NCBI GenBank assembly: GCA_028698185.1
Contig: JAQVDW010000005.1
Coordinates: forward strand, 69,441-101,440
DNA: 32,000 nt
Reading direction: 5' to 3'
DNA from: Erysipelotrichaceae bacterium
GTDB taxonomy: Bacteria > Bacillota_I > Bacilli_A > Erysipelotrichales > Coprobacillaceae
Shown here: positions 2,778-21,530 of the stretch, in pieces
How positions within the stretch are numbered: position 1 is the first letter of the stretch
How the letters are laid out: each line of letters starts with the position of its first letter
Notes under the pieces: generated by a model
What the model saw: only the letters and a program-made list of their open reading frames with translations
Told to the model about the DNA's origin: nothing
The model's database searches: none
Position numbers and translations under genes: made by a program

Positions 2778-2835
2778 CTGGGCTGTAAATTATGGTATAA
2801 TGCGATTACAAGGCAGTTATGAAAGAGGTGGCAGC

Positions 2836-5282: not shown

Positions 5283-5294
5283 AGGAGAATAGAG

Positions 5295-6554
5295 ATGGAT
5301 TTTGAAAAAAGATATCAAGAAGCAAAAGAAGTGTATGCGACTTTAGGCATCGATGTCGATGGAGCGTTGGAAAAATTGGATAATTTCCCGATTTCAATGC
5401 ACTGCTGGCAAGGTGATGACGTGGTCGGATTTGACGGGGCAGGTGCTCTTAGCGGTGGAATCCAGACAACTGGAAACTATCCCGGAAAAGCGACAACTCC
5501 CGAGCAACTGATGGGAGACATCGACAAGGTTTTTTCACTGACACCGGGAAAAAAACACCGGATCAACCTTCACGCCTGTTATGCGATTTTCCAGGAAGGT
5601 CAATGGGCTGACCGTGATCAACTTGAACCAAAACACTTCCAGGCTTGGGTTGACTATGCCAAACAAAGAGGGCTGGGACTGGATTTCAATCCGACTATCT
5701 TCTCCCATCCAAAAGCGACAGGGTTGACTCTGTCTTCACCGGATAAGGAAATCCGCGATTTCTGGATCAGACACAGCCAGGCCTGCATTAGAATCAGCGA
5801 ATATTTCGCAACTGAACTGGGCACACCTTGTCTGATGAATATCTGGATTCCCGATGGTTTGAAGGATATCCCCGGTGACCGGATGGCACCACGAAGAAGA
5901 TTCAAGGAATCGTTGGATGAGATCCTGTCAATCGATTATGACAAGGAAAAAGTTCTTGTATGTCTGGAATCGAAGGTGTTTGGAATCGGGATGGAATCAT
6001 ACACCGTCGGATCATCGGAGTTCACCTTGAACTATGCCAAGAGTGCGGGAATCACTCCATTGATGGACAACGGCCACTATCACCCGACCGAAGTCGTTTC
6101 CGACAAACTTTCGGCAATGCTGCTGTTCAATGACAAAGTGGCTCTTCACGTGACTCGTCCGGTACGTTGGGACAGTGACCACGTAGTCCTGTTCGATGAT
6201 GAAACAAAAGAAATCGCCAAGGAAATCGTCAGAAATGATGCCATGGAACGGGTTCTTGTCGGGCTTGACTTCTTCGATGCGAGCATCAACCGCATATCGG
6301 CTTGGACTGTTGGGATGCACAACATGCAAAAGGCGATGCTCAACGCCTTGTTGACACCACACGCGCAGCTGGCAAAACTGCAGGATGAAGGCAACTTCAC
6401 GAAAATCATGGCGATCCAGGAAGAGCTGAAGACTTATCCATTCGGTGATGTATGGAACTACTACATGGCCAAAAACAATCTGCCATCATATCTTGACTGG
6501 TTCAAAGAGATTGAACAATATGAAACAGATGTATTATCGAAAAGGGGACAATAG
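5295..6554 (+). CDS. rhaA: L-rhamnose isomerase
   Basis: [46 protein letters not shown] and [12 protein letters not shown] are near-identical to E. coli RhaA blocks. Confidence 0.95.
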
Positions 6555-6555
6555 A

Positions 6556-7383
6556 ATGAATATATTGGAATTGGAATTTATCAAAGGATTCATCCGGATG
6601 TGCGACGACGGGTTCAACCAGGGCTGGCATGAACGCAACGGCGGGAACCTGACTTACCGAATCAAGGCTGAAGAGATTGCAAAAACAGCAGGAATGCTTG
6701 ACGAATCCAAGGAATGGGTGGCCATCGGTACCGAAGTGCCTAGCCTGGCTGGGGAGTACTTCCTGGTTACCGGTTCGGGAAAATATTTCCGCAACGTGGC
6801 TCTTGCTCCTGAAACAAATATCGCGATCATCAAAATCGATGATACCGGAACAAAATACCAGCTGCAATGGGGTCTTGTCGATGGCGGGAAACCGACAAGC
6901 GAGCTGCCATCACATCTGATGAACCATGCGGTCAAAAAGGCGGCATCAAACGGTAAACATCGGGTTATCTACCATGCCCACACGACCAATGTGATCGCCC
7001 TGACTTTCGTATTGCCTTTGCGTGATGAAGTTTTCACTCGGGAACTTTGGGAAATGGCTACGGAATGTCCGGTTGTCTTCCCAGGGGGAATCGGAATGGT
7101 TCCTTGGATGGTGCCTGGAGGCAAAGCAATCGCTGTGGCAACCTCTAAACTGATGGAAAAATACGATGTGGCGATCTGGGCTCATCACGGGATGTTCTGC
7201 TCAGGTGAGGATTTCGATCTGACTTTTGGTCTGATGCATACGGTTGAAAAATCGGCGGAAATCCTGGTTAAAGTACTGTCAATCCAGCCAACCAAGCTCC
7301 AAACTATCCAGGCCGATGAGTTCCGCGAATTGGCTAATGATTTCAATGTCAATTTGCCTGAAGAATTTCTGTTTGAAAAATAG
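6556..7383 (+). CDS. rhaD: rhamnulose-1-phosphate aldolase
   Basis: Start ATG 6556, 1 nt after the rhaA stop, with an AAAGGGGA RBS. GWHERNGGNLTYR, VTGSGKYFRNV, TSELPSHL, TECPVVFPGGIGMVPWMVPG and TVEKSAEILVKV match E. coli RhaD. The ORF-track start at 6445 lies inside rhaA. Confidence 0.93.
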   Translation: MNILELEFIKGFIRMCDDGFNQGWHERNGGNLTYRIKAEEIAKTAGMLDESKEWVAIGTEVPSLAGEYFLVTGSGKYFRNVALAPETNIAIIKIDDTGTKYQLQWGLVDGGKPTSELPSHLMNHAVKKAASNGKHRVIYHAHTTNVIALTFVLPLRDEVFTRELWEMATECPVVFPGGIGMVPWMVPGGKAIAVATSKLMEKYDVAIWAHHGMFCSGEDFDLTFGLMHTVEKSAEILVKVLSIQPTKLQTIQADEFRELANDFNVNLPEEFLFEK

Positions 7384-7397
7384 GAGGGGGAACAAAG

Positions 7398-8555
7398 ATG
7401 TCAAAAAGATTTATATTAAACGAAACCAGCTACCATGGTAGCGGTGCAATCAAGGAAATTGTAAGCGAAGCAGTTTCCCGTCAATTCAAAAAAGCCCTTA
7501 TTGTCACTGACAAGGACCTGGTGAAATTCCAGGTGGTCAAAAAAGTCACTGACCTGTTGGACGAGGCGGGACTGGCATACGAGATTTTCGACGAAGTCAT
7601 GGCCAATCCGACCATCGAACTGGTTACCAATGGAGTCGCTGCCTTCAAAAAAAGCGGGGCCGACTACATGATCGCCATCGGGGGCGGGTCACCTCAGGAT
7701 GCGGCCAAGGCGATCGGAATCATCATCAACAATCCAGAATTCGCCGATGTGAGATCTTTGGAAGGAGTGGCGCCGACCAAAAACAAATGCGTTCCGATTA
7801 TTGCAGTGGCAACGACAGCTGGAACCGCAGCCGAAACGACAATCAACTACGTCATCACCGACGTCCAAAACAAGCGCAAGTTCGTCTGCGTCGATGTCCA
7901 TGACATCCCGGTTGTGGCGATCGTTGATCCGGACATGATGGCTTCGATGCCAAAAGGACTTACTGCGGCTACCGGCCTTGATGCCTTGACTCATGCGATT
8001 GAAGGGTATACGACTCTAGGAGCGTGGGAACTCGCTGATACTCTCAATCTTAAAGCGATCGGACTGATTGCAAGAAGCCTGGAAGCAGCCTGCCAGAACG
8101 ATCCCAAAGGTCGAGAAGACATGGCTTTGGGTCAATATATGACCGGAATGGCTTTCTCGAACGTGGGACTGGGTGTGGTCCATGGGATGGCTCATCCACT
8201 AAGCGCATTTTACGACACGCCTCATGGCATCGCCAATGCCGTGCTGCTTCCTTACGTGATGGAGTACAACAAGGACTTCACCGGTTCGAAATTCAGGGAA
8301 ATCGCCAGAGCGATGGGTGTGAGTGGTGTCGACGCCATGAGCGAAGCACAGTACAAGCAAGCAGCTATCGATGCTGTTGTCACATTGTCTAAAAACTGCT
8401 CAATTCCTCAGACCTTGAGGGAAATCGGTGTCAAGGAAGAAGACCTGGAAGCCTTGAGCGAAGCGGCTATGGCCGATGTGTGCACCGGGGGTAATCCGCG
8501 TCCTTGCCAAAAGAGCGAAATCCTGGATCTATATAAAAAAGCATATAACGGTTGA
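7398..8555 (+). CDS. fucO: lactaldehyde reductase (L-1,2-propanediol oxidoreductase), Fe-dependent ADH family
   Basis: ILNETSYHGSGA, GGGSPQDAAKAIGIIINNPEFADVRSLEG, TTAGTAAETTINYVITD, GLGVVHGMAHPL and DVCTGGNPR closely follow E. coli FucO. TAGGAGGGGG RBS. Confidence 0.9.
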   Translation: MSKRFILNETSYHGSGAIKEIVSEAVSRQFKKALIVTDKDLVKFQVVKKVTDLLDEAGLAYEIFDEVMANPTIELVTNGVAAFKKSGADYMIAIGGGSPQDAAKAIGIIINNPEFADVRSLEGVAPTKNKCVPIIAVATTAGTAAETTINYVITDVQNKRKFVCVDVHDIPVVAIVDPDMMASMPKGLTAATGLDALTHAIEGYTTLGAWELADTLNLKAIGLIARSLEAACQNDPKGREDMALGQYMTGMAFSNVGLGVVHGMAHPLSAFYDTPHGIANAVLLPYVMEYNKDFTGSKFREIARAMGVSGVDAMSEAQYKQAAIDAVVTLSKNCSIPQTLREIGVKEEDLEALSEAAMADVCTGGNPRPCQKSEILDLYKKAYNG

Positions 8556-9086: not shown

Positions 9087-9138
9087 AGAAAATAAAAGTA
9101 GGCACAAATTTGTAACTATCACTACAAACTTATGCCTA
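9087..9138 (-). terminator. terminator of the minus-strand gene 9162-9788; its stem is built from two motif copies
   Basis: TAGGCACAAATTTGTA (9099-9114) pairs with TACAAACTTATGCCTA (9123-9138), 14 of 16 positions, 8-nt loop. On the minus strand the hairpin is followed by CUUUUAUUUUCU. Confidence 0.6.
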
Positions 9139-9161: not shown

Positions 9162-9788
9162 CTATTTTTTTGTGATTTTCAGATCTTTGAAATATGCTTC
9201 GGTGCCGATTTCCGACCAAAGTCCGATTCCTCCGGTCGCATCGCTGCCATGGAACATGTCGTTGACAATCAGGGCCGGCTGGGATGCGTTGTTGACAAAA
9301 AGTAGGGCTTTTGAACCTTCGACTTCGATTTTCAAATCAATCCAGGCTTCAAATTCCATGTCCGCATAGGCTTCATATTTGCCCGCGGCAATCTCGCGCA
9401 ATCTGTCATATTTGTATTCCGGATATGAATAGTATTGGATTGAATGGTTGCGGCGCAGCTGGTCATCGCAGCGGGCGTTCAGTGGCCGGACGTAAATCGA
9501 TTCATAAGCGGTATTGGCAGAGTTGATGCGAAATGCCACTCCTAAAAAGCCACGGGCATGAGCGGGAGCGTCTTTCAACAGGCGGCTGAACACTTTGACT
9601 TCGATGATGCCATCATGGAAATCATCGCTACCATTGAATCGGGCGTAGGTCGGTTCATCGTCTTTGATGACTTCCGGGCTTTTCAATACTTTCAATACCG
9701 GGTCGCCATCGAGCGGTGTTTCTTCGACTGTGGAATTGACAGCGGTGAAATATTCAAGTGTCATTGGGATAAAATCAGTTTTGTTCAT
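9162..9788 (-). CDS. hypothetical cytoplasmic protein, possibly a concanavalin-A/LamG-like beta-sandwich (weak call)
   Basis: I prefer the second ATG (9788), which lies 6 nt after AGGAGA; the first ATG (9794) abuts the SD. No signal peptide. The pattern GFLGVAFRI...IYVRP...WIDLKIEVEGSKALLFVNN...GGIGLW suggests a jelly-roll fold. No recognisable catalytic motif. Confidence 0.6.
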   Translation of the reverse strand: MNKTDFIPMTLEYFTAVNSTVEETPLDGDPVLKVLKSPEVIKDDEPTYARFNGSDDFHDGIIEVKVFSRLLKDAPAHARGFLGVAFRINSANTAYESIYVRPLNARCDDQLRRNHSIQYYSYPEYKYDRLREIAAGKYEAYADMEFEAWIDLKIEVEGSKALLFVNNASQPALIVNDMFHGSDATGGIGLWSEIGTEAYFKDLKITKK

Positions 9789-9824
9789 TTGCATTCTCCT
9801 TTGTTTTTCATGATCACACTATAG

Positions 9825-9854: not shown

Positions 9855-9944
9855 AGGCACAATTTTGTAACTGTGGAATTTTTTGAAATAAGTCGTTTCA
9901 AATCGAGATTCAAATTAAGTTCTCTTGGTTACATATTTGTGCCT
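9855..9944. repeat. inverted pair of the 17-nt motif in the divergent promoter region
   Basis: AGGCACAATTTTGTAAC (9855-9871) and GTTACATATTTGTGCCT (9928-9944; reverse complement AGGCACAAATATGTAAC) are identical at 15 of 17 positions with a 56-nt spacer. Confidence 0.8.
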
Positions 9945-9946
9945 AC

Positions 9947-9975
9947 TTAACATTGATAACTTCCCGGTGTATACT
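9947..9975 (+). promoter_or_regulatory. candidate sigma-A promoter of the precursor/rSAM operon
   Basis: TTAACA (9947-9952), 17-nt spacer ending in TG (extended -10), TATACT (9970-9975). It starts just 3' of the right motif arm. Confidence 0.5.
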
Positions 9976-10019: not shown

Positions 10020-10238
10020 ATGACAACATTCCAAAAAAAATTAAGTGCCCAAGCTTTCTTTAGAGCGGCGGCAACTGAGGCTTCATCATCTTGTGGCAGC
10101 GCCTGTGGTGCTGGCGATAAGGAAGTCAAAGAAGAAACTCCAAGTGCTTGTGGCAGTGCCTGTGGTGCTGGCGACAAGGAAGTCAAAGAAGAAACTCCAA
10201 GCGCTTGTGGCAGCGCTTGTGGTGCCGGGGACAAATAA
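10020..10238 (+). CDS. candidate RiPP precursor: 24-aa leader plus three tandem Cys-rich units (CGSACGAGDK) with EVKEETPSA linkers
   Basis: AAGGAG at 10007-10012 lies 7 nt before the ATG. 72 aa: MTTFQKKLSAQAFFRAAATEASSS-[CGSACGAGDK-EVKEETPSA]x2-CGSACGAGDK-stop. Same strand as the radical SAM/SPASM gene and 107 nt upstream of it. Confidence 0.75.
   Translation: MTTFQKKLSAQAFFRAAATEASSSCGSACGAGDKEVKEETPSACGSACGAGDKEVKEETPSACGSACGAGDK
10092..10235 (+). repeat. in-frame 57-bp tandem repeat, 2.5 copies
   Basis: Units start at 10092, 10149 and 10206. Units 1 and 2 differ at 3 of 57 nt. All 7 variable sites across the three units are third codon positions. Confidence 0.95.
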
Positions 10239-10345: not shown

Positions 10346-11371
10346 ATGGAATATTTCGCATTTCAATTTCATATAACCGACCAGTGTGACCAGCGGTGCG
10401 AGCACTGCTACATCTTTGCCGAGGACAACAACATCTGCTTGAAAGAGATGGAATTGGAGGATGTTGAAAAAGTCATCACCAATTGTGTCGACATGTGTAC
10501 GAGAATGGAACGACTGCCTTATTTTTACATTACCGGAGGCGATCCGATCCTCCATCAGAATTTCTGGGATATCGCAAAACTGCTCAAAGAGCGCAACATC
10601 CCTTTTGGCATCCTGGGCAATCCGTTCCATCTCAACGATGAAACATGTGCCCGGTTGGCCCAACATGGCTGCAAGAAATACCAGCTTTCGATCGATGGGA
10701 TGGAAAAAACCCATGACTTCATCCGCAAGCCTGGTTCGTTTGCGACCACCCTTGCCAAGATTCCGGTTCTCAAAAAAGCCGGTATCGATGTGGCCATCAT
10801 GACGACAGTTTCTGGAACAAATATAGATGAGATGGAAGACATTGTCGACCTGGTTGTCGAACACGAAGCGGACATTTTCGCTTTTGCCCGCTACTGCCCG
10901 ACCAGCTTTGAAAAGGAAACCCACATTGAACCATTGGAATATCGGAATTTGCTTGACCGGTTGTGGCAAAAGTTCGAAACGTACCAGGATGGGCCCACTA
11001 CCTTCAACCTCAAGGACCATCTATGGAATCTCTACCTTTATGAAAAGGGCCTGTATCAGATTCACGAAGGATTGGAACAAGACAAAATCCATGACGGATG
11101 CAACTGCGCCAACTGTCATATGACGATTTTGCCTGACGGTGCTGTCTATGCCTGCCGCCGGATGGAAAGCAATATCGGCAATGTATTGAGCCAGAGCATC
11201 TATGATCTTTATCATGGCAAGGAAATGGAAGCATACCGCCAATATGACAAGTTTGAAAAATGCGCCAAATGCGAGCTGCTCAACTTCTGCCGCGGGTGTC
11301 CGGCGGTGGCCTATGGCTATACCCACGACATGTACGCGCCCGACCCGCAGTGCTGGAAAGAAATCGATTAG
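10346..11371 (+). CDS. radical SAM/SPASM-domain enzyme (putative peptide maturase)
   Basis: CDQRCEHC gives CX3CX2C at residues 14-21. The C-terminus has CNCANCHMTILPDGAVYAC ... CAKCELLNFCRGC ... DPQCW, a SPASM-type auxiliary-cluster Cys pattern. AAGAGGA RBS. There is no N-terminal extension that could hold an RRE. Confidence 0.9.
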   Translation: MEYFAFQFHITDQCDQRCEHCYIFAEDNNICLKEMELEDVEKVITNCVDMCTRMERLPYFYITGGDPILHQNFWDIAKLLKERNIPFGILGNPFHLNDETCARLAQHGCKKYQLSIDGMEKTHDFIRKPGSFATTLAKIPVLKKAGIDVAIMTTVSGTNIDEMEDIVDLVVEHEADIFAFARYCPTSFEKETHIEPLEYRNLLDRLWQKFETYQDGPTTFNLKDHLWNLYLYEKGLYQIHEGLEQDKIHDGCNCANCHMTILPDGAVYACRRMESNIGNVLSQSIYDLYHGKEMEAYRQYDKFEKCAKCELLNFCRGCPAVAYGYTHDMYAPDPQCWKEID

Positions 11372-11384: not shown

Positions 11385-11978
11385 ATGGAACAAACCAATG
11401 AAGTAATTGAATGTTTGCAAAAGCGCCGGACCTACCGCCAGTTCCAGGACCGGTCAATTGAAAGGGAGAAACTCGACCTGATTGTCAATGCCGGTCTGGT
11501 CGCCCCCAATGCCGGAGGCCGCCAGGGCCCGGTATTCATCGTTTGCCAGGATAAGACAGTCAATACATTGTTGGGAGAAGCCAGACGGCAGGCCAGTTCC
11601 ATTCCAACCGGACGTCACGTTTCTAAGGAACAGCCCAGTGTGATCGACAATCCAAACATCAAAAACAGTTTCTATGGGGCTCCGGTGGTTGTCACCATCG
11701 CCGCACCGAAAAATTTCATTTTCAGTCAAAGTGATGCGGCTATGGCAGCCCAAAATATGATTATCGCGGCCACCTCCCTGGAAATTGCATCTTGTTTTAT
11801 CGGTAGGGCGGAAACGACTTTCAATACCGGAATCGGCGTAGTTATCTGGAATGATTGGAATATCGCAGAAAATCTCAAACCGTTCTGTCATATCCTGCTT
11901 GGCTACCCGGCGGGAATTCCGCCCAAACCTAAACAAATCAAGGAAAACCGGGTTTTCTTCGTCAACCAGGACCAATAA
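11385..11978 (+). CDS. nitroreductase-family flavoprotein
   Basis: Start ATG 11385 after GAGGAGGA, 13 nt after the rSAM stop. The N-terminus RRTYRQFQDRSIEREKLDLIVNAGLVAPNAGGRQ is the typical nitroreductase signature. The ORF-track start at 11202 lies inside the rSAM gene. Confidence 0.85.
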   Translation: MEQTNEVIECLQKRRTYRQFQDRSIEREKLDLIVNAGLVAPNAGGRQGPVFIVCQDKTVNTLLGEARRQASSIPTGRHVSKEQPSVIDNPNIKNSFYGAPVVVTIAAPKNFIFSQSDAAMAAQNMIIAATSLEIASCFIGRAETTFNTGIGVVIWNDWNIAENLKPFCHILLGYPAGIPPKPKQIKENRVFFVNQDQ

Positions 11979-12927
11979 TGCATGATATCTGGAATCCCTG
12001 GCATGGCTGTGTGAAAATCAGCGAAGGCTGTGCCAACTGCTACATGTATTTTCTCGACAAGAAAAACGGAAAAGATGGGGCAGTGATCTATCGTTCCAAA
12101 AACAACTTTGATTACCCTTTGAAAAGGACCGCCAGGGCGAATACAAAATCAAAAGTGGCGAAATAATCCGGGTCGCGATGACTTCGGACTTCTTCCTCGA
12201 ACAAGCCGACCAGTGGCGTGATGAGGCCTGGAAAATCATGGAAGCCCGTAGCGATGTCATCTTTTTCCTGTTGACCAAACGGGCCCAACGGATCAATGAG
12301 TGCCTGCCCGAAAGTTTCCAAAACGGCCGATGGGATATGGCGAATATCTTCATCAATGTCTCGTGCGAGAATCAGCGCCTGGCCGATTTGCGGATCCCCT
12401 ATCTTTTGAAAGTCCCGATAAAGCACAAGGGGATCATGGCGGCGCCTTTTATCGGGCCAATCAACATCGAAAAGTATCTGGCAACCGGAATGATTGAACA
12501 GGTGATTTGCGGTGGGGAGAATTATGGCGGGGCGAGGATGTGCGACTTTGACTGGGTCAGGGATCTGGGGGGCCAATGCCGGGACCATCAAGTCAAGTTC
12601 GCTTTCATCGAAACCGGGTCTATTTTTTGCAAGGATGGCCAGCGTTACAAGATTGCCCCAAAAGCCATGCAAAGCCGTCTGGCCTACAAATCGAAAGCCA
12701 GTCTTGAAGGCAAGAAGATAACTTTCGATCTGCATGATGTCAATAAAAATCCGATTCCCAAAGACAAGTTGCATGTGCCCCATTACCGGGAAACTTGCCG
12801 CTATTGTGGCAGCAGATCCATCTGCAATGGTTGCAGTGACTGTGGCCGATGTAATGGCGAAATAATCACTCAGGAACAAATGAAAATCCATGACCAGGAA
12901 TATTTCAAAAAAGGAGCTAAAAAATGA
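11978..12927 (+). pseudogene. DUF5131 (phage Gp37/Gp68 family) three-Cys protein with a Cys-rich C-terminal tail; reading frame broken by a -1 shift
   Basis: WNPWHGCVKISEGCANCY (C-x6-C-x2-C) is in frame 2 (11978-12166). The family continuation ...GEYKIKSGEIIRVAMTSDFF...LLTKR...GGENYGGARM...FAFIETG is in frame 1, open from 12112. One extra A in the A4 run 12122-12125 would fuse the frames as DYPLKKDRQGEY. The start overlaps the nitroreductase stop (TAATG) and the stop overlaps the next ATG (ATGA). Confidence 0.7.
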
Positions 12928-13895
12928 AAGCAGTATTGTTGGAGAAACCGATCAAAGCCAATGAAATGAAAATTGTCGAAGTGCCAAAGCTTAAAATCAG
13001 ACCAGGATGGGTTTTGATCAAAGTCAAAGGTTTCGGGTTGAACCGGGCCGAATTGATTTTGCGCAATCATGAAATCGCAGCGGATTACATCCAGAAGCCG
13101 GTTGTTCCGGGTATCGAGTGTGTCGGGGAAATTCATGATGGAGGCGACAGCCGTTTCAACAAGGGCGATAAAGTAGTCGCCTTGATGGGCGGAATGGGCC
13201 GGAGTTTTAACGGCAGCTACAGTGAGTATGCCTTGTTGCCGGCCCACCATGTGTTCAAGGTGGAAACCGCAATGGATTGGGTCGAATTGGCTGCGATTCC
13301 CGAAACGTTTTACACGGCCTACGGTTCGCTGTTCGAATCGCTCCAGCTCAAAGGAGATGATATCCTGCTTGTCCATGGGGCGACCTCGGCGCTTGGTTTG
13401 GCAGCCATCCAGCTGGCCAAAACAGTGGGAGCTACGGTTATTGGCACCTCACGCAAGGAAGAACGCCTGGACTTGTTGCGGGAGGTTGGTTGTGACCATG
13501 CCCTTGTGGATGATGAAAACCTGGTTGCCAAGATCAAGGATATATATTCAAAGGGCATCACGAAAATTTTGGAATTGGTCGGAGCCCATACGATCGCCAA
13601 AACAGCCCAACTGCTTAGAATTGGGGGAATTGTCTGTGTCACTGGCAAACTGGGCGGGGGCCAGACTAACGGCTTGGATCTGATCCGCCTGCTGCCAAAT
13701 GGCACCTATCTTTGTGGTTTCTACAGCAATTATCCGACCCAGGCGGTGATTGATGATATCTTCAGGATCATCGAACAACACAACATCAAGCCGGTAATTG
13801 GCCGGGTCTTCGACTTTGAGCAGATCGGTGAAGCCCATGAGGTGATGGAAAACAACCAGGCCCAAGGGAAAATTGTCATCAGAATGAGTGAGTGA
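12924..13895 (+). CDS. MDR-superfamily zinc-type alcohol dehydrogenase / NADPH:quinone oxidoreductase-like protein
   Basis: The N-terminal GroES-like part (VKGFGLNRAELILR, PGIECVGEI) and the Rossmann GxxxxxG region (VHGATSALGLAAIQLAK), ending in NQAQGKIVI, are typical of the QOR/zeta-crystallin subgroup. AAGGAG RBS. Confidence 0.85.
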   Translation: MKAVLLEKPIKANEMKIVEVPKLKIRPGWVLIKVKGFGLNRAELILRNHEIAADYIQKPVVPGIECVGEIHDGGDSRFNKGDKVVALMGGMGRSFNGSYSEYALLPAHHVFKVETAMDWVELAAIPETFYTAYGSLFESLQLKGDDILLVHGATSALGLAAIQLAKTVGATVIGTSRKEERLDLLREVGCDHALVDDENLVAKIKDIYSKGITKILELVGAHTIAKTAQLLRIGGIVCVTGKLGGGQTNGLDLIRLLPNGTYLCGFYSNYPTQAVIDDIFRIIEQHNIKPVIGRVFDFEQIGEAHEVMENNQAQGKIVIRMSE

Positions 13896-14006: not shown

Positions 14007-14333
14007 CTATCCGACGAAGTCCTTGTACTGGTTGCCCCATTCTTCCATCGATTTGAACAAGGGTCTAAGACTGTTGCCCATGTCGGTGAGCGAATACTCC
14101 ACTTTCGGGGGCACGACCGGGTAGGCCTTGCGGTCGACAATGCCATCGGCTTCCAATTGGCGCAGGTTGTCGGTGAGCACCTTCTGGGAAATTCCTGGCA
14201 GGCTGTTTTTCAGCTCGCCAAAACGGCAGGTCGAAACCAGAAGATTCCGGATGATCAATAATTTCCATTTGTTGCCGATGATCTCAACCATGGTGGCCAC
14301 CGGGCAAGCAGGCAGTTCGTCTTTGGTAAGCAT
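14007..14333 (-). CDS. HxlR/YodB-type (DUF24) winged-helix transcriptional regulator
   Basis: CPVATMVEIIGNKWKLLIIRNL, FGELK, GISQKVLTDNLRQLEADGIV and PPKVEYSLTDMG form the classical HxlR signature, including the conserved N-terminal Cys (C10). AAGGAG RBS. Confidence 0.9.
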   Translation of the reverse strand: MLTKDELPACPVATMVEIIGNKWKLLIIRNLLVSTCRFGELKNSLPGISQKVLTDNLRQLEADGIVDRKAYPVVPPKVEYSLTDMGNSLRPLFKSMEEWGNQYKDFVG

Positions 14334-14583
14334 AATTTTCTCCTTAGTATCTGATATGGTGTAAGTATAAAATATAATGTATGGATTGTCAATATGGTCC
14401 CGCTGATTAACCTATCTCGTTGGCCATAGTCACTTTCAGGTAACTAGATAATAAAAAAGTGCGTACTTTTGCGAATGAATTATTTTTGGTAAGATGAATT
14501 TGGCTCAAGGAGGGCCGATGAAAATCTAATATTATAATCAGATTCAAGATGGGGATCAATCGGTTATGGAAGGAGTTGTAATC

Positions 14584-15504
14584 ATGGAATTTTACAGCAA
14601 TTATTGTCAGAAAAAAAATAAAAGTCAAAATTATCCGAGTTTGGAACAGAGAGTCAAAACTGTTCGGGAATTGCTTGAAGAGGCCGAGTATGTTGTCATC
14701 GGGGCCGGTTCGGGTTTGTCGTCGGCGGCCGGTCTTGACTTTGGCGGCGAGCGGTTTGAAAAATATATGGGCGAATTCGGATCAAGGTATGGCTATCATG
14801 ACATGTATAGCGGTGATTTTTACAACTACCAGACGCGTGAGGAATTCTGGGCGTTCGAGGCCAAGACAATCCTGGTTAACCGCTATGAGGTGCCCGGTTT
14901 GAAACTGTATCACAAGTTGTTTGACTTGATCAAGGATAAAAACCATTTCGTGATCACAACCAATGTCGAAAGCCAGTTTGCCAAATCGGGATTCGATTCC
15001 AATCGCATCTTCGCGACCCAGGGTGATTACAGCAAGCTTCAATGTGGTGGCGCCTGCCACGACACCCTGTATGACAATGAAAAGTTGGTCAAAGAAATGG
15101 TTGCCAAGACAAGAGACTGTGCCATCCCGACTGAACTGATTCCCAAATGTCCGATATGCCATAGGGAAATGAAGGTCAACTTGCGCAGCGATGGCTACTT
15201 TGTCGAAGACAAATCATGGCATGAGGCCTGCAGCCGCTATGAATCATTCATCAGCTCCATCAATAAGGCACCGGTGGTTTATCTGGAATTCGGGGTCGGC
15301 TACAATACGCCGGGCATCATCCGCTATCCCTTCGAACGCTTCACATACGCCAACCCCAACGCCCATCTAATCCGCTTCAACCGGGACTATCCCGAAGGAA
15401 TCACTGAAAACAAAGACAAGACGATCGGTTTCACCGAGGATATGAATATGGTCCTCGCCATGTTATTCGAACCGACAAAAGGAGAACAGGAAAATGAGCT
15501 TTAA
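14584..15504 (+). CDS. SIR2-family protein, class M-like sirtuin (SirTM-type, putative protein ADP-ribosyltransferase)
   Basis: I prefer ATG 14584, 8 nt after GGAAGGAG. GAGSGLSSAAGLDF NAD-binding loop. TTNVESQF replaces QNID. ATQGDYSKLQCGGAC has Gln where canonical sirtuins have the catalytic His (HG). Zn-ribbon Cys pairs CGGAC and CPIC. GVGYNTP replaces GTS. Confidence 0.75.
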   Translation: MEFYSNYCQKKNKSQNYPSLEQRVKTVRELLEEAEYVVIGAGSGLSSAAGLDFGGERFEKYMGEFGSRYGYHDMYSGDFYNYQTREEFWAFEAKTILVNRYEVPGLKLYHKLFDLIKDKNHFVITTNVESQFAKSGFDSNRIFATQGDYSKLQCGGACHDTLYDNEKLVKEMVAKTRDCAIPTELIPKCPICHREMKVNLRSDGYFVEDKSWHEACSRYESFISSINKAPVVYLEFGVGYNTPGIIRYPFERFTYANPNAHLIRFNRDYPEGITENKDKTIGFTEDMNMVLAMLFEPTKGEQENEL

Positions 15505-16033
15505 AGAAATAGGAATTGAAGAATTGGAAATAAACCCGATGACAATGATCGGAGGCGACTGGTGGTTGATCAGTGCTGGTAATGAACAAAATGGTTACAA
15601 TGCGATGACGGCCTCATGGGGGCATCTAGGCGCAATCTGGGAAAGACCTGAAGGCAAAGCCCACATGGGATTGCCGACTGCCTGTGTCTATTTGCGCCCG
15701 CAACGCTATACCAAGGAATATCTTGAGCGCGAGGACATTTTCACACTGAGTGTGTTCGAAAGCAATCACAAAAGGGCCCTAGGCTACCTTGGCAGCCACA
15801 GCGGCCGCAATGAAGATAAAATCGCCAATGCCAACCTGACACCAGTATTCGATCAGGGCACAATCTACTATGAACAGGCTAAAATGGTCTTTGTCTGCAA
15901 GAAGATCTACAATGCCCCATTGCAAGAAAGCGGCTTTGTCGATACCAGCCTGGTTGAAAACAACTACCCGAAAAAAGATTTCCACGAAATGTATATCGGA
16001 GAAATTGTCAAAGTCCTGGTCAAGAATGACTGA
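15494..16033 (+). CDS. flavin reductase-like (FMN-binding split-barrel) protein
   Basis: AAGGAG RBS, 11-nt overlap with the sirtuin gene. NAMTASWGHLG is the characteristic N.MT.SW motif of the flavin-reductase-domain family. Confidence 0.75.
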   Translation: MSFKEIGIEELEINPMTMIGGDWWLISAGNEQNGYNAMTASWGHLGAIWERPEGKAHMGLPTACVYLRPQRYTKEYLEREDIFTLSVFESNHKRALGYLGSHSGRNEDKIANANLTPVFDQGTIYYEQAKMVFVCKKIYNAPLQESGFVDTSLVENNYPKKDFHEMYIGEIVKVLVKND

Positions 16034-16763
16034 TGATTTGGATAACTTGACTCAAGAGCTCAACGATTTCGTCCAGGAAAAAGGGATCGATATTTTCGGG
16101 ATCGGGGATGTCGACTATCTCAACCAGATGGCCCGACCCGGCCGCCGGCTAGAAGATCTGTTTCCCGGTGGCCAGGCGGTGTTGATCTTTGGCTGTGGCA
16201 TAGACCATTCCCTGGCGCGGGCTTGGGTCAAATCCGGAAGAGGAAAATATCTGACTCTGACGATGACTGCCTTGGAAAACCGTAAGTGGCTGATCAAGGA
16301 TTTTCTTGCTAGAAAAGGCTACCGCACATTCGGGGGTGAATTTCACGGCGGAGGAATTTGGGAAACCGGAATCCGTCTGGGAGAAGCCGGAGCCAGTGCC
16401 GGTCTGGGCTACATTGGCAAAAACAATATGCTTATCACTCCCAAATACGGACCCCGGGTCAACCTGGCGTACCTGGTCACCGATGCCCCGCTGCAAACGA
16501 CAGTGGTCACTCCCAAAAATGAATGTGGCACCTGTGCGATCTGCGAAAAATATTGCACCAGCAAGGCGATTTTAGGTGATGGTTATTTCCATGGCCGGGC
16601 CTGCGAGAGTGTCATCAACTGCATGGCAAACAAGATCCACCTGACCAGTCAGGTCACGATGGATTGCGATATGTGTCAAAGGATGTGTCCCCAAGGGGAA
16701 ATCAAATATTCAAAAATAGAACGTCAGGGTACCTGGTGGGACAAATTGGAGCAATATCAATGA
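16026..16763 (+). CDS. QueG/reductive-dehalogenase-like 4Fe-4S protein (short form)
   Basis: GLGYIGKNNMLITPKYGPRVNLAYLVTDAPL resembles the epoxyqueuosine reductase core. CGTCAICEKYC and CDMCQRMCP are ferredoxin-type Cys motifs. Start ATG 16026 overlaps the upstream stop by 8 nt. The SD is weak. Confidence 0.7.
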   Translation: MTDDLDNLTQELNDFVQEKGIDIFGIGDVDYLNQMARPGRRLEDLFPGGQAVLIFGCGIDHSLARAWVKSGRGKYLTLTMTALENRKWLIKDFLARKGYRTFGGEFHGGGIWETGIRLGEAGASAGLGYIGKNNMLITPKYGPRVNLAYLVTDAPLQTTVVTPKNECGTCAICEKYCTSKAILGDGYFHGRACESVINCMANKIHLTSQVTMDCDMCQRMCPQGEIKYSKIERQGTWWDKLEQYQ

Positions 16764-17487
16764 AAGCGAACTGGAAAATCCGCAGGCTGCCCAAAGACTT
16801 GGCTATCCTGGAAAAATATCTTGAAAAGACCCCAAAGCAGCAGGAACGCCGCGAGCTGACGATGCTTGTCTAGGAGGCGGCTTTTGCCAAGGGAATCGAG
16901 CTTTTCCACATCCGTGATCTCAGCTGCGGATCGCAGGACATTGATTTTGGATGGGACTTTCCTCATGCCCATGCGGTTGTTTACCTGGGCATGGTGGTCA
17001 AGGACCCATTTCTACTGAGTTGCCAGTCGGTTCCCGGGAACAAGACCGGACTGTATTCGATCGCAGCTTTGCAAGTGGAAAATTACCTTTGGGAATTTGC
17101 CGGGATCCTTGAGCTTCAAGGCTACCGGGTCAAAAAAATGGTTGGAATACCCGACCTGATTTCCAGTTCGCCAAGGCCCTGGCCAACAGCGGCAGGGGGA
17201 TGGTTGGGAAAAACGGCCGCTATTTGATTGGTGATTTTGGTTGCAAAGTCTGTCTTGGCTATCTGGTTACCGATGCCCCGCTCCAGGGGGACGATTACCG
17301 GGATACCCAAGTAGTGCTGACCAATCCCTGTCAAAACTGCACTGTCTGCCTTGATGTCTGCCCAACCCAGGCCATCTTGCCAGGTCACATCGATCAAGAC
17401 AAGTGCCTGGAAGGATGTCTTGCCTGCATGGAACATTGCCTGGCATCCCAAATAAGATGGGAAAAACTGCCTTGTGGCGAATTATGA
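16760..17487 (+). pseudogene. second QueG-like paralog, interrupted by an in-frame TAG and a -1 frameshift
   Basis: ATGA overlap with the upstream gene. In-frame TAG at 16871-16873 falls where paralog 1 reads NDFVQEKGIDIF (here TMLV*EAAFAKGIELF). The frame changes from 2 to 1 somewhere within 17113-17227; the A7 run at 17132-17138 is a candidate site. The downstream part MVGKNGRYLIGDFGCKVCLGYLVTDAPLQ ... CQNCTVCLDVCP parallels paralog 1. Confidence 0.65.
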
Positions 17488-17508
17488 CAGATTGAAGGAG
17501 AAAAGCTG

Positions 17509-18351
17509 ATGGAAAACCTGACCCAAAACCAACGACTGGATTGTCTGATTGACTGGCTCAAAGGGGAGTCTTATCATTACCGCAATTTGAAAGTCGATGG
17601 CGATCATGAAAAAAAGAAAGCAACCCTCAGGGCGTTGATGAATATCCGGATGCCCCGGAATGTCCCGATGTCAATCATGACCATCCAGGATGAATATTTG
17701 CAACAAGAACGCCAAGCCACAGGTGTCGTCGGCCCTGATGCCATTCCTTCAATCGAAGAAACATTAGGATCTGAATTGCCGTTTGGTTCCAAACTGGCCT
17801 TATGGCAGGGGGACATCACCACCCTGGAAGTCGATGCGATCGTCAATGCCGCAAACAACCAGCTGCTGGGCTGTTTCATTCCCAATCATCACTGCATCGA
17901 CAACGCGATCCATTCCGGTGCGGGAATGGCCTTGCGGCTGGAGTGCGCCAATTACATGAACAGCAGGCAAAAAATCCACGGCGACCAATATCTGGAGCCA
18001 ACCGGTCAGGCAATGATCACCAATGGCTACAATCTCGCAGCTTCGTATGTGATTCATACAGTCGGCCCGATTGTCACCGGAAAGCTCGAAAATAGCCACC
18101 GCATCGCATTGAAAAGCTGTTATCACAACGTGCTGGAACGGGCCCGGGAAAATGGGCTACGGACCTTGGCGTTGTGTTGCATCTCGACCGGGGAATACCA
18201 TTTCCCCAATCTCGAAGCAGCCCATATCGCTGTGGCAACTGTCCGCGATTACCTGGAAAATCACGGTGACTGTTTCGATTTGATCATCTTCAACGTGTTC
18301 AAGGACCAGGATTATGAATGTTACAAGAATGTACTGTCGTCAATGAAATAG
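17509..18351 (+). CDS. macrodomain protein-ADP-ribose hydrolase (SirTM-partner type)
   Basis: GAAGGAG RBS. The ~95-aa helical N-terminal extension, then LWQGDITTLEVDAIVNAANNQLLGC, HSGAGMALR, YVIHTVGP and CCISTGEYHFP, is the architecture I recall for the Staphylococcus/Streptococcus operon macrodomain. Confidence 0.85.
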   Translation: MENLTQNQRLDCLIDWLKGESYHYRNLKVDGDHEKKKATLRALMNIRMPRNVPMSIMTIQDEYLQQERQATGVVGPDAIPSIEETLGSELPFGSKLALWQGDITTLEVDAIVNAANNQLLGCFIPNHHCIDNAIHSGAGMALRLECANYMNSRQKIHGDQYLEPTGQAMITNGYNLAASYVIHTVGPIVTGKLENSHRIALKSCYHNVLERARENGLRTLALCCISTGEYHFPNLEAAHIAVATVRDYLENHGDCFDLIIFNVFKDQDYECYKNVLSSMK

Positions 18352-18363
18352 GAGGATTCGGAC

Positions 18364-18972
18364 ATGGATTTCATCGATATTTCCAAAAAGCGCCAGACCG
18401 TGCGCAAGTTTTCCAATGAACCGGTCGAACCAGAAAAACTGGAAAAAATATTGGAGGCGGGAAGGTGGGCACCTACGGCTGTCAATGGCCAACCCCAGCG
18501 GATTCTTGTCCTGGACAATCCCGAGAACCTCATGAAGGTGAAGCAGTTCTGCAGTTTTGGCTATGACCAGAAGTATGTCGATCTGGCCCATGAGTGCGAC
18601 GATTCGAAAAACGGGAAAATCAACTTGTACTATGGAGCCCCGCTGGTTCTGTTTGTCTGCTATGACCAGGATGCCTGCTGGAGACATCCCCAGACCGGAG
18701 AGAGTTCCGGAGCGACCGATGCGACAATCGTCGCCACCCATCTGATGCTTGAGGCGGCCAGTTTGAATCTTGGCAGCGTGTGGATCAGCTATTTTGATGA
18801 AACCAAAGCCCGGGAATTGTTGAACATTCCCAAGCAGTGGCAACCCGTATGCATGCTGTATATCGGCTATCCGGCCGCGGATTTTGTGCCCAACACCCAT
18901 CTAGGAGGCAAACGCCTGCCAATCGGGAAAACCTGTTTTTACAACGGGGTTCCCGGGCAACACAATTCGTGA
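18364..18972 (+). CDS. nitroreductase-family flavoprotein
   Basis: AGGAGG RBS, 12 nt after the macro gene. KRQTVRKFSNEPVEPEKLEKILEAGRWAPTAVNGQPQR is the typical nitroreductase N-terminus. Confidence 0.85.
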   Translation: MDFIDISKKRQTVRKFSNEPVEPEKLEKILEAGRWAPTAVNGQPQRILVLDNPENLMKVKQFCSFGYDQKYVDLAHECDDSKNGKINLYYGAPLVLFVCYDQDACWRHPQTGESSGATDATIVATHLMLEAASLNLGSVWISYFDETKARELLNIPKQWQPVCMLYIGYPAADFVPNTHLGGKRLPIGKTCFYNGVPGQHNS

Positions 18973-19037
18973 ATCAACAATCGCCCAGCCGGGCCATGAA
19001 ATATCTTGACCTGGCTAAATTTAATTAAGTCTACTTT

Positions 19038-19067
19038 TTGCGCTCTGGACTCGAATCAAGAGCGCAA
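19038..19067. promoter_or_regulatory. palindrome upstream of the MFS gene (operator or RNA stem; function unknown)
   Basis: TTGCGCTCT (19038-19046) pairs with AGAGCGCAA (19059-19067) with a 12-nt spacer. No T-tract follows, so it is not a canonical terminator. Confidence 0.3.
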
Positions 19068-19098
19068 TAATCAACTGGAAAATACAGGAGGAACAATT

Positions 19099-20319
19099 AT
19101 GGAACAGGAATTCAATATGACAGAACTGAACCGAACGAAACAAAAATTTTTAGGTGAGCGGGGCTTTGTCGGGTTCATCGCCTTTCTGGGAGCTTTTATC
19201 CCGCTGTCAACCGATATCTATTTGCCGGCGATGCCTGGCATGGTTGCCAATTTGAATACGACAATCTCCCTGGTAAATCTGACCCTGGTGCTGTTTTTCG
19301 TCTTTTATGCGATCGGCACCTTGTTCTGGGGGCCGCTAAGCGACAAATATGGCCGCAAGCCAGTTTTGCTTGTGGGGCTTGGCATCTATCTTGTTTCCAG
19401 TGTCTTATGTGCGATGGCCTGGAATGTTTATGTCCTGATCGCCTTTAGGATTTTCCAGGCGATCGGTTGCGGGGCGGCCACGGCGGTTTCCACAGCGATG
19501 ATCAAGGACACGTTTGAAGGAGCCAAGCGAGTCAAAATCCTGGCGATTGTCCAAACGATGGCTACAACTTCGCCAATCGTCTCTCCGGTTATCGGGGCCT
19601 TCATTTTAAGTGCCATTTCCTGGCGGGGGGCTTTCATTTTTCTGGCCCTGATTGGAGCTTTGAGCGTTCTGGGCGCCTTGGTCATGCAGGAGACGAATAA
19701 TTCAAAATCCCAAGAGAAGATTTTCAAAACTATCGGTCGGCTGGGAGTCGTGGCCAAAAACAAAGCTTTCATGTCTTTGCTATTGATGTTCTCATTGTTG
19801 AACGTGGCGTTCATGTCTTTTATCACGGCCTCTTCATTCATCTATGTTGACGGTTTCGGGGTCAGTGAACAAATGTACAGTTATTACTTCTCGGCCAATG
19901 CGGTTTTCCTGCTTTTAGGTCCAATGGTCTATCTGTTTTTGGCAAGATTCATTTCCACCAAGAACCTAATCAAGATCGCCTATTCAATTATCGTCTTGAG
20001 TGGAATCATGGTGGTTACCATCGGAACGAAATCACCGCTGTTGTTTTGTCTGGCTTTGATTCCGGCTTCTCTTGCTGGCAATATGATCGGACCACCGCGG
20101 ACCAATCTGATGATCGAACAGGTTGATGGGGATACTGGAGCTGCTTCGTCTTTGATCAATGGCGTGTTTACAATATTCGGCAGCTTCGGAATGCTTTTGA
20201 TTTCCTTCAATTTTGTCGACAAGATTATTTTGATGGGAAGCATGTACATCCTGGCGGGAACAATAACATTGGCAGCCTGGATTATCTTGGCACGTAAATC
20301 ATACATCATACAAAATTAA
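19099..20319 (+). CDS. MFS efflux transporter, Bcr/CflA-like
   Basis: I prefer ATG 19099, 7 nt after AGGAGG. The protein is multi-TM throughout. LFWGPLSDKYGRKPVLL is the MFS loop 2-3 motif as seen in Bcr/CflA drug exporters. Confidence 0.85.
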   Translation: MEQEFNMTELNRTKQKFLGERGFVGFIAFLGAFIPLSTDIYLPAMPGMVANLNTTISLVNLTLVLFFVFYAIGTLFWGPLSDKYGRKPVLLVGLGIYLVSSVLCAMAWNVYVLIAFRIFQAIGCGAATAVSTAMIKDTFEGAKRVKILAIVQTMATTSPIVSPVIGAFILSAISWRGAFIFLALIGALSVLGALVMQETNNSKSQEKIFKTIGRLGVVAKNKAFMSLLLMFSLLNVAFMSFITASSFIYVDGFGVSEQMYSYYFSANAVFLLLGPMVYLFLARFISTKNLIKIAYSIIVLSGIMVVTIGTKSPLLFCLALIPASLAGNMIGPPRTNLMIEQVDGDTGAASSLINGVFTIFGSFGMLLISFNFVDKIILMGSMYILAGTITLAAWIILARKSYIIQN

Positions 20320-20384
20320 AGTAAAATATGCTTGACTGGAGTTGACTTCAATGCCGTATGATTGAATGTAGGAGGAATATTAAG

Positions 20385-21503
20385 ATGACTTATACATTTG
20401 ACGACATTAAAAAATTAGGCTTCGGTCTGATGCGGCTGCCTAAAATCGGCGATGCGATTGATATCGAACAAACCAAAGTTATGGTTGATGACTTTCTGGC
20501 AGCGGGATTCACGTACTTCGATACGGCCTGGGCCTACAGTGGCTCCGAAGATGCCATCCGGCAGGCTTTGGTGGAACGTTATCCCAGGGATGCTTTCCAG
20601 CTGGCGACCAAGAATGCGGCCTGGATCAATTGCAAAAACCGGGAAGAAGCGATTGATCAGTTTGAAACTTCACTTCGACAAACCGGAGCTGGTTATTTCG
20701 ATTTCTACCTGCTCCACAACCTGGGAGAATCAAGAACCCATTTCTTCGATGATTTCGACATGTGGACTTTCGTTCAGGAGAAAAAAGCTCAAGGGCTGAT
20801 CAAGCATGTCGGTTTCTCGTTCCATTCGACTCCCGAAGAATTGGAAGAAATCCTGATCGCCCATCCGGAGGTCGAATTCGTCCAACTTCAGATCAACTAT
20901 GCCGACTGGGAAAATCCGGCAATCCAATCCCGGGCTTGTTATGAAATGGCCCGCAAATACAACAAGGCGGTAATCGCCATGGAACCGGTCAAAGGAGGCA
21001 TGCTCGCCAACCCTCCCCAACCCGTGGCCGAAGTTTTCCAGGATGCCAATCCTGAAGCTTCACTGGCTTCGTGGGCGATCAAGTTCGCGGCCAATCTTGA
21101 TGGGGTGGTTACTGTCCTTTCGGGAATGAGCGACGTTGAACAGATGGCTGACAATCTGGATTACATGAAGGATTTCACCAAATTGGATGAAGGTGAAATG
21201 GCAGTCATTGCCAAAGCCCAGGAAGAACTGGCCAGAATCGACATCATCCCATGTACGACTTGTGATTACTGTGCTAAGGTCTGTCCGATGAATATCGGAA
21301 TTTCCGGTTCATTCACGGCCATGAACATGATGATTGTCTATGGTGACAAGGCCAAAGCCAAACAACAGGAAAACTGGCTAGTTACCCGCCATGACAAGCA
21401 ACAGGCAAGCGAGTGCATCAAGTGCGGTCTTTGCGAGGAAGTCTGCCCCCAACATATCAAAATCCGCGACCAGTTGGATCGCGTAGTTGCAAAATTGCTT
21501 TAA
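20385..21503 (+). CDS. aldo/keto reductase fused to a C-terminal 2x[4Fe-4S] ferredoxin domain (COG1453-type)
   Basis: ATG 20385 lies 9 nt after AGGAGG. AKR N-terminus GFGLMRLP...YFDTAWAYSGSE. The C-terminus has CTTCDYCAKVCP and CIKCGLCEEVCP. Confidence 0.85.
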   Translation: MTYTFDDIKKLGFGLMRLPKIGDAIDIEQTKVMVDDFLAAGFTYFDTAWAYSGSEDAIRQALVERYPRDAFQLATKNAAWINCKNREEAIDQFETSLRQTGAGYFDFYLLHNLGESRTHFFDDFDMWTFVQEKKAQGLIKHVGFSFHSTPEELEEILIAHPEVEFVQLQINYADWENPAIQSRACYEMARKYNKAVIAMEPVKGGMLANPPQPVAEVFQDANPEASLASWAIKFAANLDGVVTVLSGMSDVEQMADNLDYMKDFTKLDEGEMAVIAKAQEELARIDIIPCTTCDYCAKVCPMNIGISGSFTAMNMMIVYGDKAKAKQQENWLVTRHDKQQASECIKCGLCEEVCPQHIKIRDQLDRVVAKLL

Positions 21504-21530
21504 GAGTTGGAATCCCAACTCTTTTTTTTT
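21503..21530 (+). terminator. rho-independent terminator
   Basis: AGAGTTGG (21503-21510), loop AATC, CCAACTCT (21515-21522), running into T9. Confidence 0.85.

Follow-up and report, generated by a model that had tools for sequence, protein, structure and literature searches.

The stretch of DNA analysed here, referred to as the window, comprises 32,000 nucleotides of contig JAQVDW010000005.1 (assembly GCA_028698185.1) from an Erysipelotrichaceae bacterium, and carries a predicted writer/eraser pair for protein ADP-ribosylation, namely a class M sirtuin (SirTM) and a zinc-dependent macrodomain protein (Zn-Macro). The two genes lie on the same strand, three genes (~2 kb) apart, within a series of eight closely packed reading frames that occupy positions 14584-21503 of the + strand, all in the same orientation. 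The features of this region are as follows.

14007-14333, - strand: HxlR, winged helix-turn-helix regulator of the HxlR/DUF24 family, divergent from SirTM (PF01638, 117.6 bits), with an N-terminal Cys-Pro
14456-14469, no strand assigned: palindrome AAAGTGCGTACTTT between the HxlR and SirTM genes, a candidate operator
14584-15504, + strand: SirTM, class M sirtuin of 306 residues, predicted NAD+-dependent protein mono-ADP-ribosyltransferase
15494-16033, + strand: FlavRed, flavin-reductase-like protein of 179 residues (PF01613, 37 bits against a cut-off of 27)
16026-16763, + strand: FeS1, Fe-S protein of 245 residues resembling the QueG/RdhA superfamily
16760-17487, + strand: FeS1', pseudogene of a paralogous Fe-S protein
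17509-18351, + strand: Zn-Macro, zinc-dependent macrodomain protein of 280 residues, predicted protein-ADP-ribose hydrolase
18364-18972, + strand: NTR, nitroreductase-family flavoprotein of 202 residues (PF00881, 118 bits)
19099-20319, + strand: MFS, Bcr/CflA-type major facilitator superfamily efflux transporter of 406 residues (TIGR00710, 223 bits against a cut-off of 201)
20358-21503, + strand: AKR-FeS, aldo/keto reductase ending in a 4Fe-4S dicluster domain (PF00248, 153 bits, and Fer4 families)

The SirTM and FlavRed genes overlap by 11 nucleotides (nt), FlavRed and FeS1 by 8 nt, and FeS1 and FeS1' by 4 nt (ATGA), while gaps of 21, 12 and 126 nt precede Zn-Macro, NTR and the MFS pump gene, respectively. 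Co-orientation, overlaps of 4-11 nt, spacings of no more than 12-21 nt and the nitroreductase gene directly 3' of the macrodomain gene speak for the single operon that had been proposed for these genes in an earlier reading of the DNA made from its letters and open reading frames (ORFs), which we call the sequence-only reading. The sole convincing terminator-like hairpin with a T-run on this strand is found at 21502-21523, 3' of AKR-FeS, which is likely the last gene of the operon. No Rfam family was detected at gathering thresholds in the leader or elsewhere in the window.

The sirtuin motifs quoted in the sequence-only reading (ATQGDY, TTNVE and GVGYNTP) were all recovered in the 306-residue protein. 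FATQGDY spans residues 143-149, where Q146-G147 replaces the catalytic HG of canonical sirtuins and aligns with Q137-G of the Streptococcus pyogenes enzyme (SpySirTM), and TTNVE and GVGYNTP are located at 125-129 and 237-243. When the protein was compared with PDB sequences using phmmer, the best match was SpySirTM (5A3A, E=3.4e-54), with 45% identity over the aligned region; the fungal Mfs1 macrodomain-SirTM fusion (8RSN) was matched with E=1.8e-19, and no canonical sirtuin structure was found below E=0.01. A profile built from a 12-sequence SirTM alignment matched SIRT6, SIRT7, SIRT5, archaeal Af Sir2 and SIRT1 only with E-values of at least 1e-4, and CobB-type NCBIfam models gave at most 25 bits, against cut-offs of 221-395. 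The catalytic trio defined for class M sirtuins is Asn118/Gln137/Arg192 in SpySirTM numbering (PMC4518038; PMC8120803). Its counterparts here are N127/Q146/R201, with the offset checked against chain 5A3A, and these are invariant in the 12 aligned sequences, as are C154, C158, C189 and C192, the expected structural-zinc ligands. By every sequence criterion the protein is thus a class M sirtuin that lacks the catalytic histidine, which confirms the earlier assignment; the Gln/Arg signature (Q146/R201) is present.

The 280-residue macrodomain protein passes NF003163, the full-length protein-ADP-ribose hydrolase model (293 bits against a cut-off of 272), and its PDB matches include 8RSI (E=3.6e-62), SauMacro 5KIV (1.2e-47) and Zn-Macro chain 8RSM (5.8e-44). 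We take 8RSM to be SpyMacro, and 8RSI to be the Methanobrevibacter oralis enzyme (MorMacro), which belongs to the pair type described below; its three deposited forms fit the enzyme reported in PMC11490716. The protein carries NAAN at 113-116 (N113-AAN116), a Cx(4)HxC Zn-loop (C121-FIPN-H126-H-C128) in place of the glycine-rich catalytic loop, and a Dx3H catalytic dyad (D130-NAI-H134). Its long helical N-terminal extension, already pointed out in the sequence-only reading, amounts to ~95 residues and aligns with the three-helix bundle of solved zinc macrodomains, the alignment to 8RSI starting at residue 6. NAAN, the Cx4HxC Zn-loop, Dx3H and the N-terminal three-helix bundle are the defining elements of zinc-dependent macrodomains (Ariza 2024, PMC11490716), and as judged from its residues the protein is a SirTM-type zinc macrodomain with the complete zinc-loop catalytic motif set. 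The basic patch that binds GcvH-L, the sole known SirTM substrate (PMC4518038, PMC11490716), is absent: in the sequence alignment, SauMacro R175/R176 are replaced by T/G, and SpyMacro R172/K175 by I/G.

In order to place the locus among its relatives, we compared 83 related loci (1.47 Mb), of which 80 came from GTDB species representatives and three were contigs encoding close relatives; 59 are bacterial and 24 are from Methanobrevibacter, and all ORFs within 6 kb of SirTM were clustered. The SirTM family as a whole comprises 6,665 clusters at E<=1e-5 (90% clustering) and spans gut Clostridia, Bacilli, spirochaetes and methanogens. SirTM identity reaches at most 63% among GTDB species representatives, the nearest being a Lachnospiraceae metagenome-assembled genome and [Clostridium] fimetarium. 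In the closest relative, L002 (73% identity), the genes for SirTM, FlavRed, Macro, nitroreductase, MFS and AKR-FeS follow each other in this order, and no Fe-S genes are present; the MFS gene keeps its position both there and in L001, an independent assembly that is 99.9% identical to the window (10 substitutions and one indel over 12.4 kb). Sample SRR28465799 contains a contig of this identity.

A Macro gene was found in 71 of the 83 loci. Within the bacterial set, the pair is adjacent in 32 loci and split by other genes in 16, as it is in the window, whereas six loci lack a macrodomain gene despite at least 3 kb of sequence on each side, and in five the contig end is too near. The six macrodomain-less loci are L003, L004, L008, L013, L037 and L054, and it appears that class M sirtuins are not always linked to an eraser, or that the eraser is encoded elsewhere. 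The list below gives the families that recur next to the two genes of the pair or between them, counted over the 59 bacterial loci.

DUF1848: 15 of 59
PIG3-type quinone oxidoreductase (QOR): 14 of 59
NmrA-like NAD(P)H-binding protein: 13 of 59
ABC (ATP-binding cassette) transporter: 12 of 59
nitroreductase: 11 of 59
ACGX radical S-adenosylmethionine (SAM) enzyme: 11 of 59, with its peptide detected in 7
Rrf2 regulator: 8 of 59
PNPOx-ferredoxin fusion: 8 of 59
AKR-FeS: 7 of 59
DUF5131: 7 of 59
FeS1/FeS1' tandem: 6 of 59
FlavRed: 5 of 59

Several loci are reduced to HxlR, SirTM and Macro (L045, L055, L059). The genes beside and between the pair are recurring but variable cassettes, and the window is unusual mainly for gathering many of them at once. 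Beside SirTM, DUF1848 is found in 15 loci, DUF5131 in 7 and an SplB-like radical SAM protein in 4, and these sets of loci are mutually exclusive. Homology between these three families was considered and rejected, as hhalign returned only a short shared Cys motif with probabilities of 0.9-55%.

With regard to the genes that separate writer and eraser, the sequence-only reading had described a flavin-reductase gene and two QueG-like genes; FlavRed and FeS1 are indeed present, but the second Fe-S gene is a pseudogene. FeS1 scores 59.6 bits with TIGR00276, below the QueG cut-off of 200, and 40.9 bits with the reductive dehalogenase model, and only its residues 88-223 align to QueG structures (5D6S, E=1e-12). 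The sub-cut-off score and the partial alignment rule out an epoxyqueuosine reductase (QueG) proper. In L044, L053, L056, L060 and L075, an FeS1 orthologue opens a tandem pair. FeS1' is broken by an in-frame stop at 16871-16873 and by a frameshift near 17155-17180; five other genomes encode intact orthologues of 255-260 residues, whose alignment to it passes from one frame to another at ~17155-17180. Such intact orthologues occur in Acetobacterium, Parasporobacterium and other genomes. Since L001, assembled independently, is identical to the window throughout this region, FeS1' is a genuine pseudogene, and a sequencing error as the cause of its interruption was rejected.

The locus contains no recognizable GcvH-L or LplA2 gene. 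No Pfam match to GCV_H, lipoate ligase, old yellow enzyme (OYE; PF00724) or luciferase-like monooxygenase (LLM; PF00296) was obtained in window ORFs of at least 110 residues, and E. coli GcvH and LplA queries gave no phmmer match among ORFs of at least 60 residues in the window and in the 83 related loci (up to 21 kb). Both query sequences were confirmed as strong members of their families. Both searches agree with the statement in the sequence-only reading that neither an H-protein-like nor a lipoate-ligase ORF is visible in the 32 kb. To call this absence a new variant of the module, as that reading did, was however overstated, because such pairs have already been described. Bacterial SirTMs and macrodomains are known to sit either in independent operons or inside extended operons, with carriers listed among Clostridiaceae, Lachnospiraceae, Enterococcaceae, Spirochaetaceae and Veillonellaceae (Rack 2015, PMC4518038), and a later study separates extended operons from the pair on its own and from the fusion protein (Ariza 2024, PMC11490716). 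In the same work, pair-type and fusion Zn-Macros were unable to demodify GcvH-L, those of the pair type gave low-confidence complex models with GcvH, and the targets of the other SirTM/Zn-Macro systems were stated to remain elusive.

The regulator gene that diverges from SirTM proved to be a recurrent companion of the pair. In 56 of the 83 loci, namely 34 of the 59 bacterial ones and 22 of the 24 from Methanobrevibacter, a divergent HxlR gene is situated at most 4 kb upstream of SirTM, and the N-terminal Cys-Pro is kept in all SirTM-linked HxlR homologues (62 of 62). In the 22 archaeal loci the Macro-SirTM pair is adjacent and HxlR stands ~0.9 kb upstream of it, so that the linkage of regulator and pair crosses the boundary between bacteria and archaea. 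In the DUF24/HxlR family the N-terminal cysteine serves as a thiol switch, and its members control nitroreductases, azoreductases and quinone reductases upon exposure to diamide, quinones, aldehydes or hypochlorite (PMC3351151).

When the HxlR-SirTM intergenic region was compared with that of L002, the two were 77% identical overall, with diverged flanks and a perfectly conserved block, GTAATAAAAAAGTGCGTACTTTT, which contains the AAAGT-N4-ACTTT palindrome (14456-14469). A search for long inverted repeats in this intergenic region had returned none at seed 6, and the short palindrome surfaced only through the comparison with L002. The 1.47 Mb of loci contain AAAGT-N4-ACTTT 21 times, compared with 4.1 times in shuffled sequence, and at least 14 sites with the extended consensus AAAAAGTGC[CG]TACTTT are positioned 35-115 nt before the first gene of SirTM-containing operons. 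This placement is independent of what the first gene encodes, be it SirTM, Macro, FeS1, NmrA or an uncharacterised family. The 10-mer GTGC[CG]TACTT, for which 0.03 copies are expected, is present three times in the window:

14459-14468, + strand: GTGC[CG]TACTT copy in the SirTM promoter region
9939-9948, + strand: operator-core copy GTGCCTACTT, overlapping a -35-like hexamer ahead of the ACGX peptide gene
9096-9105, - strand: GTGC[CG]TACTT copy within a hairpin terminator of 18 bp, in its 3' arm; the terminator lies downstream of the 9162-9794 gene (- strand)

By analogy with characterized DUF24 systems, we infer that HxlR may control the operon through this candidate palindrome.

Taken as a whole, the region from ~14.0 to 21.5 kb is, in our judgement, somewhat more probably than otherwise a single oxidative/electrophile-stress operon, extending from SirTM to AKR-FeS and probably under the control of the divergent HxlR/DUF24 regulator. 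In such an operon, thiol oxidation or alkylation of the N-terminal cysteine of HxlR would alter its binding to the palindrome and induce the genes, as in DUF24 regulators (PMC3351151). SirTM would then use NAD+ to mono-ADP-ribosylate an acidic residue on a target protein, by analogy with the S. aureus and S. pyogenes systems (Rack 2015), Zn-Macro would erase the mark and make the switch reversible, and the co-expressed reductases and the pump may handle the stressor. The target would be a protein other than GcvH-L, probably a conserved one elsewhere in the genome and less likely the ACGX peptide; since the interleaved genes are variable cassettes, it is more likely encoded outside this stretch.

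Several observations weigh against this interpretation. Each of its mechanistic steps rests on homology or gene context, and the variable neighbourhood may still be compatible with lineage-specific targets. The sigma-70-like hexamers near the palindrome are imperfect (the best being TTGCGA / 15 nt / TAAGAT, with a short spacer), and the palindrome also occurs in L044 and L069, where no HxlR was detected close by. DUF24 regulators act as activators or as repressors, so that either direction of control is possible. Finally, HxlR often adjoins reductase genes, and accessory reductases could explain part of its co-occurrence with the pair; this is countered by the existence of the loci that consist of HxlR, SirTM and Macro only (L045, L055, L059).

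Upstream of HxlR, the window contains a further cassette that recurs beside SirTM, together with three other genes:

10020-10238, + strand: ACGX-repeat peptide of 72 residues that contains the SxCGSACGAGDK repeat three times (TIGR04341, 49.7 bits against a cut-off of 28)
10346-11371, + strand: rSAM_ACGX, radical SAM/SPASM maturase (TIGR04340, 576 bits against a cut-off of 400)
11385-11978, + strand: upstream nitroreductase (Pfam match), recurrent SirTM neighbour
11978-12927, + strand: DUF5131 (Pfam match), frameshifted in the window, recurrent SirTM neighbour
12924-13895, + strand: PIG3-type quinone oxidoreductase, QOR (Pfam match), recurrent SirTM neighbour

The ACGX system is therefore complete in the window, as peptide and maturase both score above their curated cut-offs. 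We searched metagenome contigs with the maturase alignment and retained the best 80 loci, a sample that is biased because the alignment was built from SirTM-linked loci. Among these 80, a divergent HxlR was present in 41 of the 53 with enough upstream sequence, and where at least 5 kb of downstream sequence was available (35 loci) SirTM was found in 20 and a macrodomain in 18. Compact loci such as L106 and L108 consist of HxlR, ACGX peptide, rSAM, SirTM and Macro, with overlapping rSAM and SirTM genes, and in L025 and L050 the ACGX module is inserted between SirTM and Macro. A literature search on the ACGX system returned only unrelated papers.

The frameshift in DUF5131 is a 1-bp deletion in an A-run near 12122 that is seen only in the window, the L001 gene being intact (316 residues). 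It is the one indel by which the two assemblies differ, and reflects either variation between strains or a sequencing error in the homopolymer. DUF5131 also matches two PADLOC candidate-defence components, PDC-M30B and PDC-M41B. Further upstream, no Pfam, NCBIfam or PADLOC match was obtained for an ORF of 210 residues at 9162-9794 (- strand), which has rhamnose-utilisation genes (1-8555) on one side and the ACGX module on the other. On the other side of the operon, in the segment 21692-31077, a gene for a LysR-family regulator, encoded on the opposite strand, precedes six aldo/keto-reductase paralogues, among which ferredoxin-like, SnoaL-like, FMN reductase and flavodoxin genes are found; this is an unusually dense run of reductases beside the SirTM operon.

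Different proteins could be considered as the target of the pair. The sequence-only reading had put forward one of the interleaved redox proteins or a distant GcvH, and both proposals are weakened by the data presented here, the latter indirectly. If the pair acted on a local redox protein (FlavRed, FeS1 or the nitroreductase), whose activity would be switched by ADP-ribosylation, it would be in keeping with the position of the candidate genes, which sit between writer and eraser and are translationally coupled, with the retention of FlavRed and nitroreductase in the 73%-identical L002, and with the staphylococcal precedent, in which the operon itself encodes the substrate (PMC4518038). Nevertheless, FlavRed, the Fe-S tandem and the nitroreductase are restricted to 5, 6 and 11 of the 59 bacterial loci, respectively; other loci interleave DUF1848, ABC transporter genes, QOR or the ACGX module instead, some have nothing but HxlR, SirTM and Macro, and of the Fe-S genes one is a pseudogene here and both are missing from L002. 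The interleaved proteins are poor candidates for a conserved substrate, because they are not conserved along with the pair and not all of them are intact, and we regard a local target as unlikely. An unlinked lipoylated GcvH, encoded elsewhere in the genome but otherwise modified as in Staphylococcus, would have in its favour that GcvH-L is the only SirTM substrate reported to date. Judging from its sequence, however, Zn-Macro is without the basic patch residues of the extended-operon enzymes and groups with pair-type enzymes, its nearest structure being 8RSI; pair-type enzymes fail on GcvH-L (Ariza 2024, PMC11490716), and neither GcvH nor LplA was met with in the 83 related loci of up to 21 kb. 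The chances of this explanation thus also appear small.

The ACGX-repeat peptide could be a substrate or functional partner of the pair, as a Cys-rich thiol carrier analogous to lipoyl-GcvH-L, in which case the ADP-ribose acceptor would be the Asp/Glu that follows each CGxxCGAG repeat. In the window, peptide and maturase lie behind a copy of the same operator core; the module neighbours SirTM in 11 of the 59 bacterial loci and separates SirTM from Macro in L025 and L050, and the frequency of SirTM in ACGX loci with enough downstream sequence (20 of 35), as well as the compact joint operons L106 and L108, point in the same direction. On the other hand, ACGX genes are missing within 6 kb of SirTM in the majority of its loci, the set of ACGX loci is biased toward SirTM-linked ones, and co-regulation by the same HxlR would explain the linkage with no enzyme-substrate relation; we therefore hold a role of the peptide as substrate or partner to be rather unlikely. 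A broader and quite speculative version of it, to which we give a low probability, is that in GcvH-L-less pairs ADP-ribosylation would be an arm of an HxlR thiol/electrophile regulon, with the radical-SAM-modified ACGX peptide replacing lipoyl-GcvH-L as substrate and the flavin and Fe-S reductases taking the role that OYE and LLM have in Staphylococcus. If this were true, it would give a function to the ACGX system as well as to the SirTM pairs, both of them orphans. SIR2 domains are, moreover, common in defence systems, and the sirtuin could be an anti-phage, NAD+-depleting protein with unrelated neighbours, a possibility to which the upstream DUF5131, with its two PADLOC matches, lends some support. 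It is very improbable, as PADLOC returned nothing for SirTM, Macro, FlavRed, FeS1 and nitroreductase, the two proteins display strong and specific similarity to solved SirTM and Zn-Macro enzymes, and the surroundings consist of metabolic and redox genes together with a redox-type regulator.

The HxlR-controlled stress operon remains the interpretation that we favour. Together with its relatives, the locus narrows the question of the substrate of GcvH-L-less pairs, left open by Ariza 2024 (PMC11490716), in that it argues against the interleaved enzymes and against GcvH. It also places the pair under a thiol-switch-type regulator with a recognizable candidate operator, and offers recurrent partners (the ACGX peptide, QOR, DUF1848 and DUF5131) as substrate candidates open to direct testing. 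The family being large and widespread, a defined target would be of importance not only for pathogens.

The locus belongs to the known category of SirTM/Zn-Macro pairs without GcvH-L and LplA2. What we did not find described is the divergent HxlR with its candidate operator, the frequency with which interchangeable redox cassettes separate writer from eraser, and the linkage to ACGX genes: HxlR, the palindrome and the accessory cassettes (ACGX, QOR, DUF1848, DUF5131 and the Fe-S tandem) go unmentioned in Ariza 2024 (PMC11490716), and a full-text literature search pairing SirTM with HxlR retrieved no paper. The ACGX system itself (TIGR04340/TIGR04341) is a cassette resembling those for ribosomally synthesized and post-translationally modified peptides, so far defined by bioinformatics only, and no description of its linkage to HxlR and SirTM/Zn-Macro was found.

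Compared with the DUF24 systems of Bacillus subtilis (YodB-yodC/azoR1 and HypR-hypO) and Corynebacterium (QorR-qorA) (PMC3351151), the locus likewise has a divergent HxlR-family regulator with the conserved N-terminal cysteine, next to nitroreductase, quinone-oxidoreductase and flavin-reductase genes and with a palindrome in the promoter region. Unlike the locus described here, those regulons are devoid of ADP-ribosylation enzymes, and the palindrome found here, AAAGTGC[CG]TACTTT, differs from the HypR box GTATCAAAATTGATAC.

With the extended S. aureus and S. pyogenes operon (GcvH-L, Macro, SirTM, LplA2, OYE, LLM), the locus shares the writer and eraser families, the presence of flavin oxidoreductases and the oxidative-stress context, but it lacks GcvH-L, LplA2, OYE and LLM. 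Its oxidoreductases are of other kinds (PF01613, PF00881, AKR and QueG-like Fe-S proteins), and the basic GcvH-L patch carried by extended-operon macrodomains is missing from its macrodomain. The closest resemblance is to the known pair type of Enterococcus faecalis, Treponema pedis and Methanobrevibacter oralis, with which it has in common a sirtuin with the QG-R trio and a Zn-loop macrodomain encoded on the same strand, in the absence of GcvH-L and LplA2. The macrodomain is structurally nearest to 8RSI, and the published range of this type already covers Lachnospiraceae and Clostridiaceae. In the published examples the two genes are adjacent, whereas here three genes lie between them and the operon runs on to a nitroreductase, an efflux pump and AKR-FeS.

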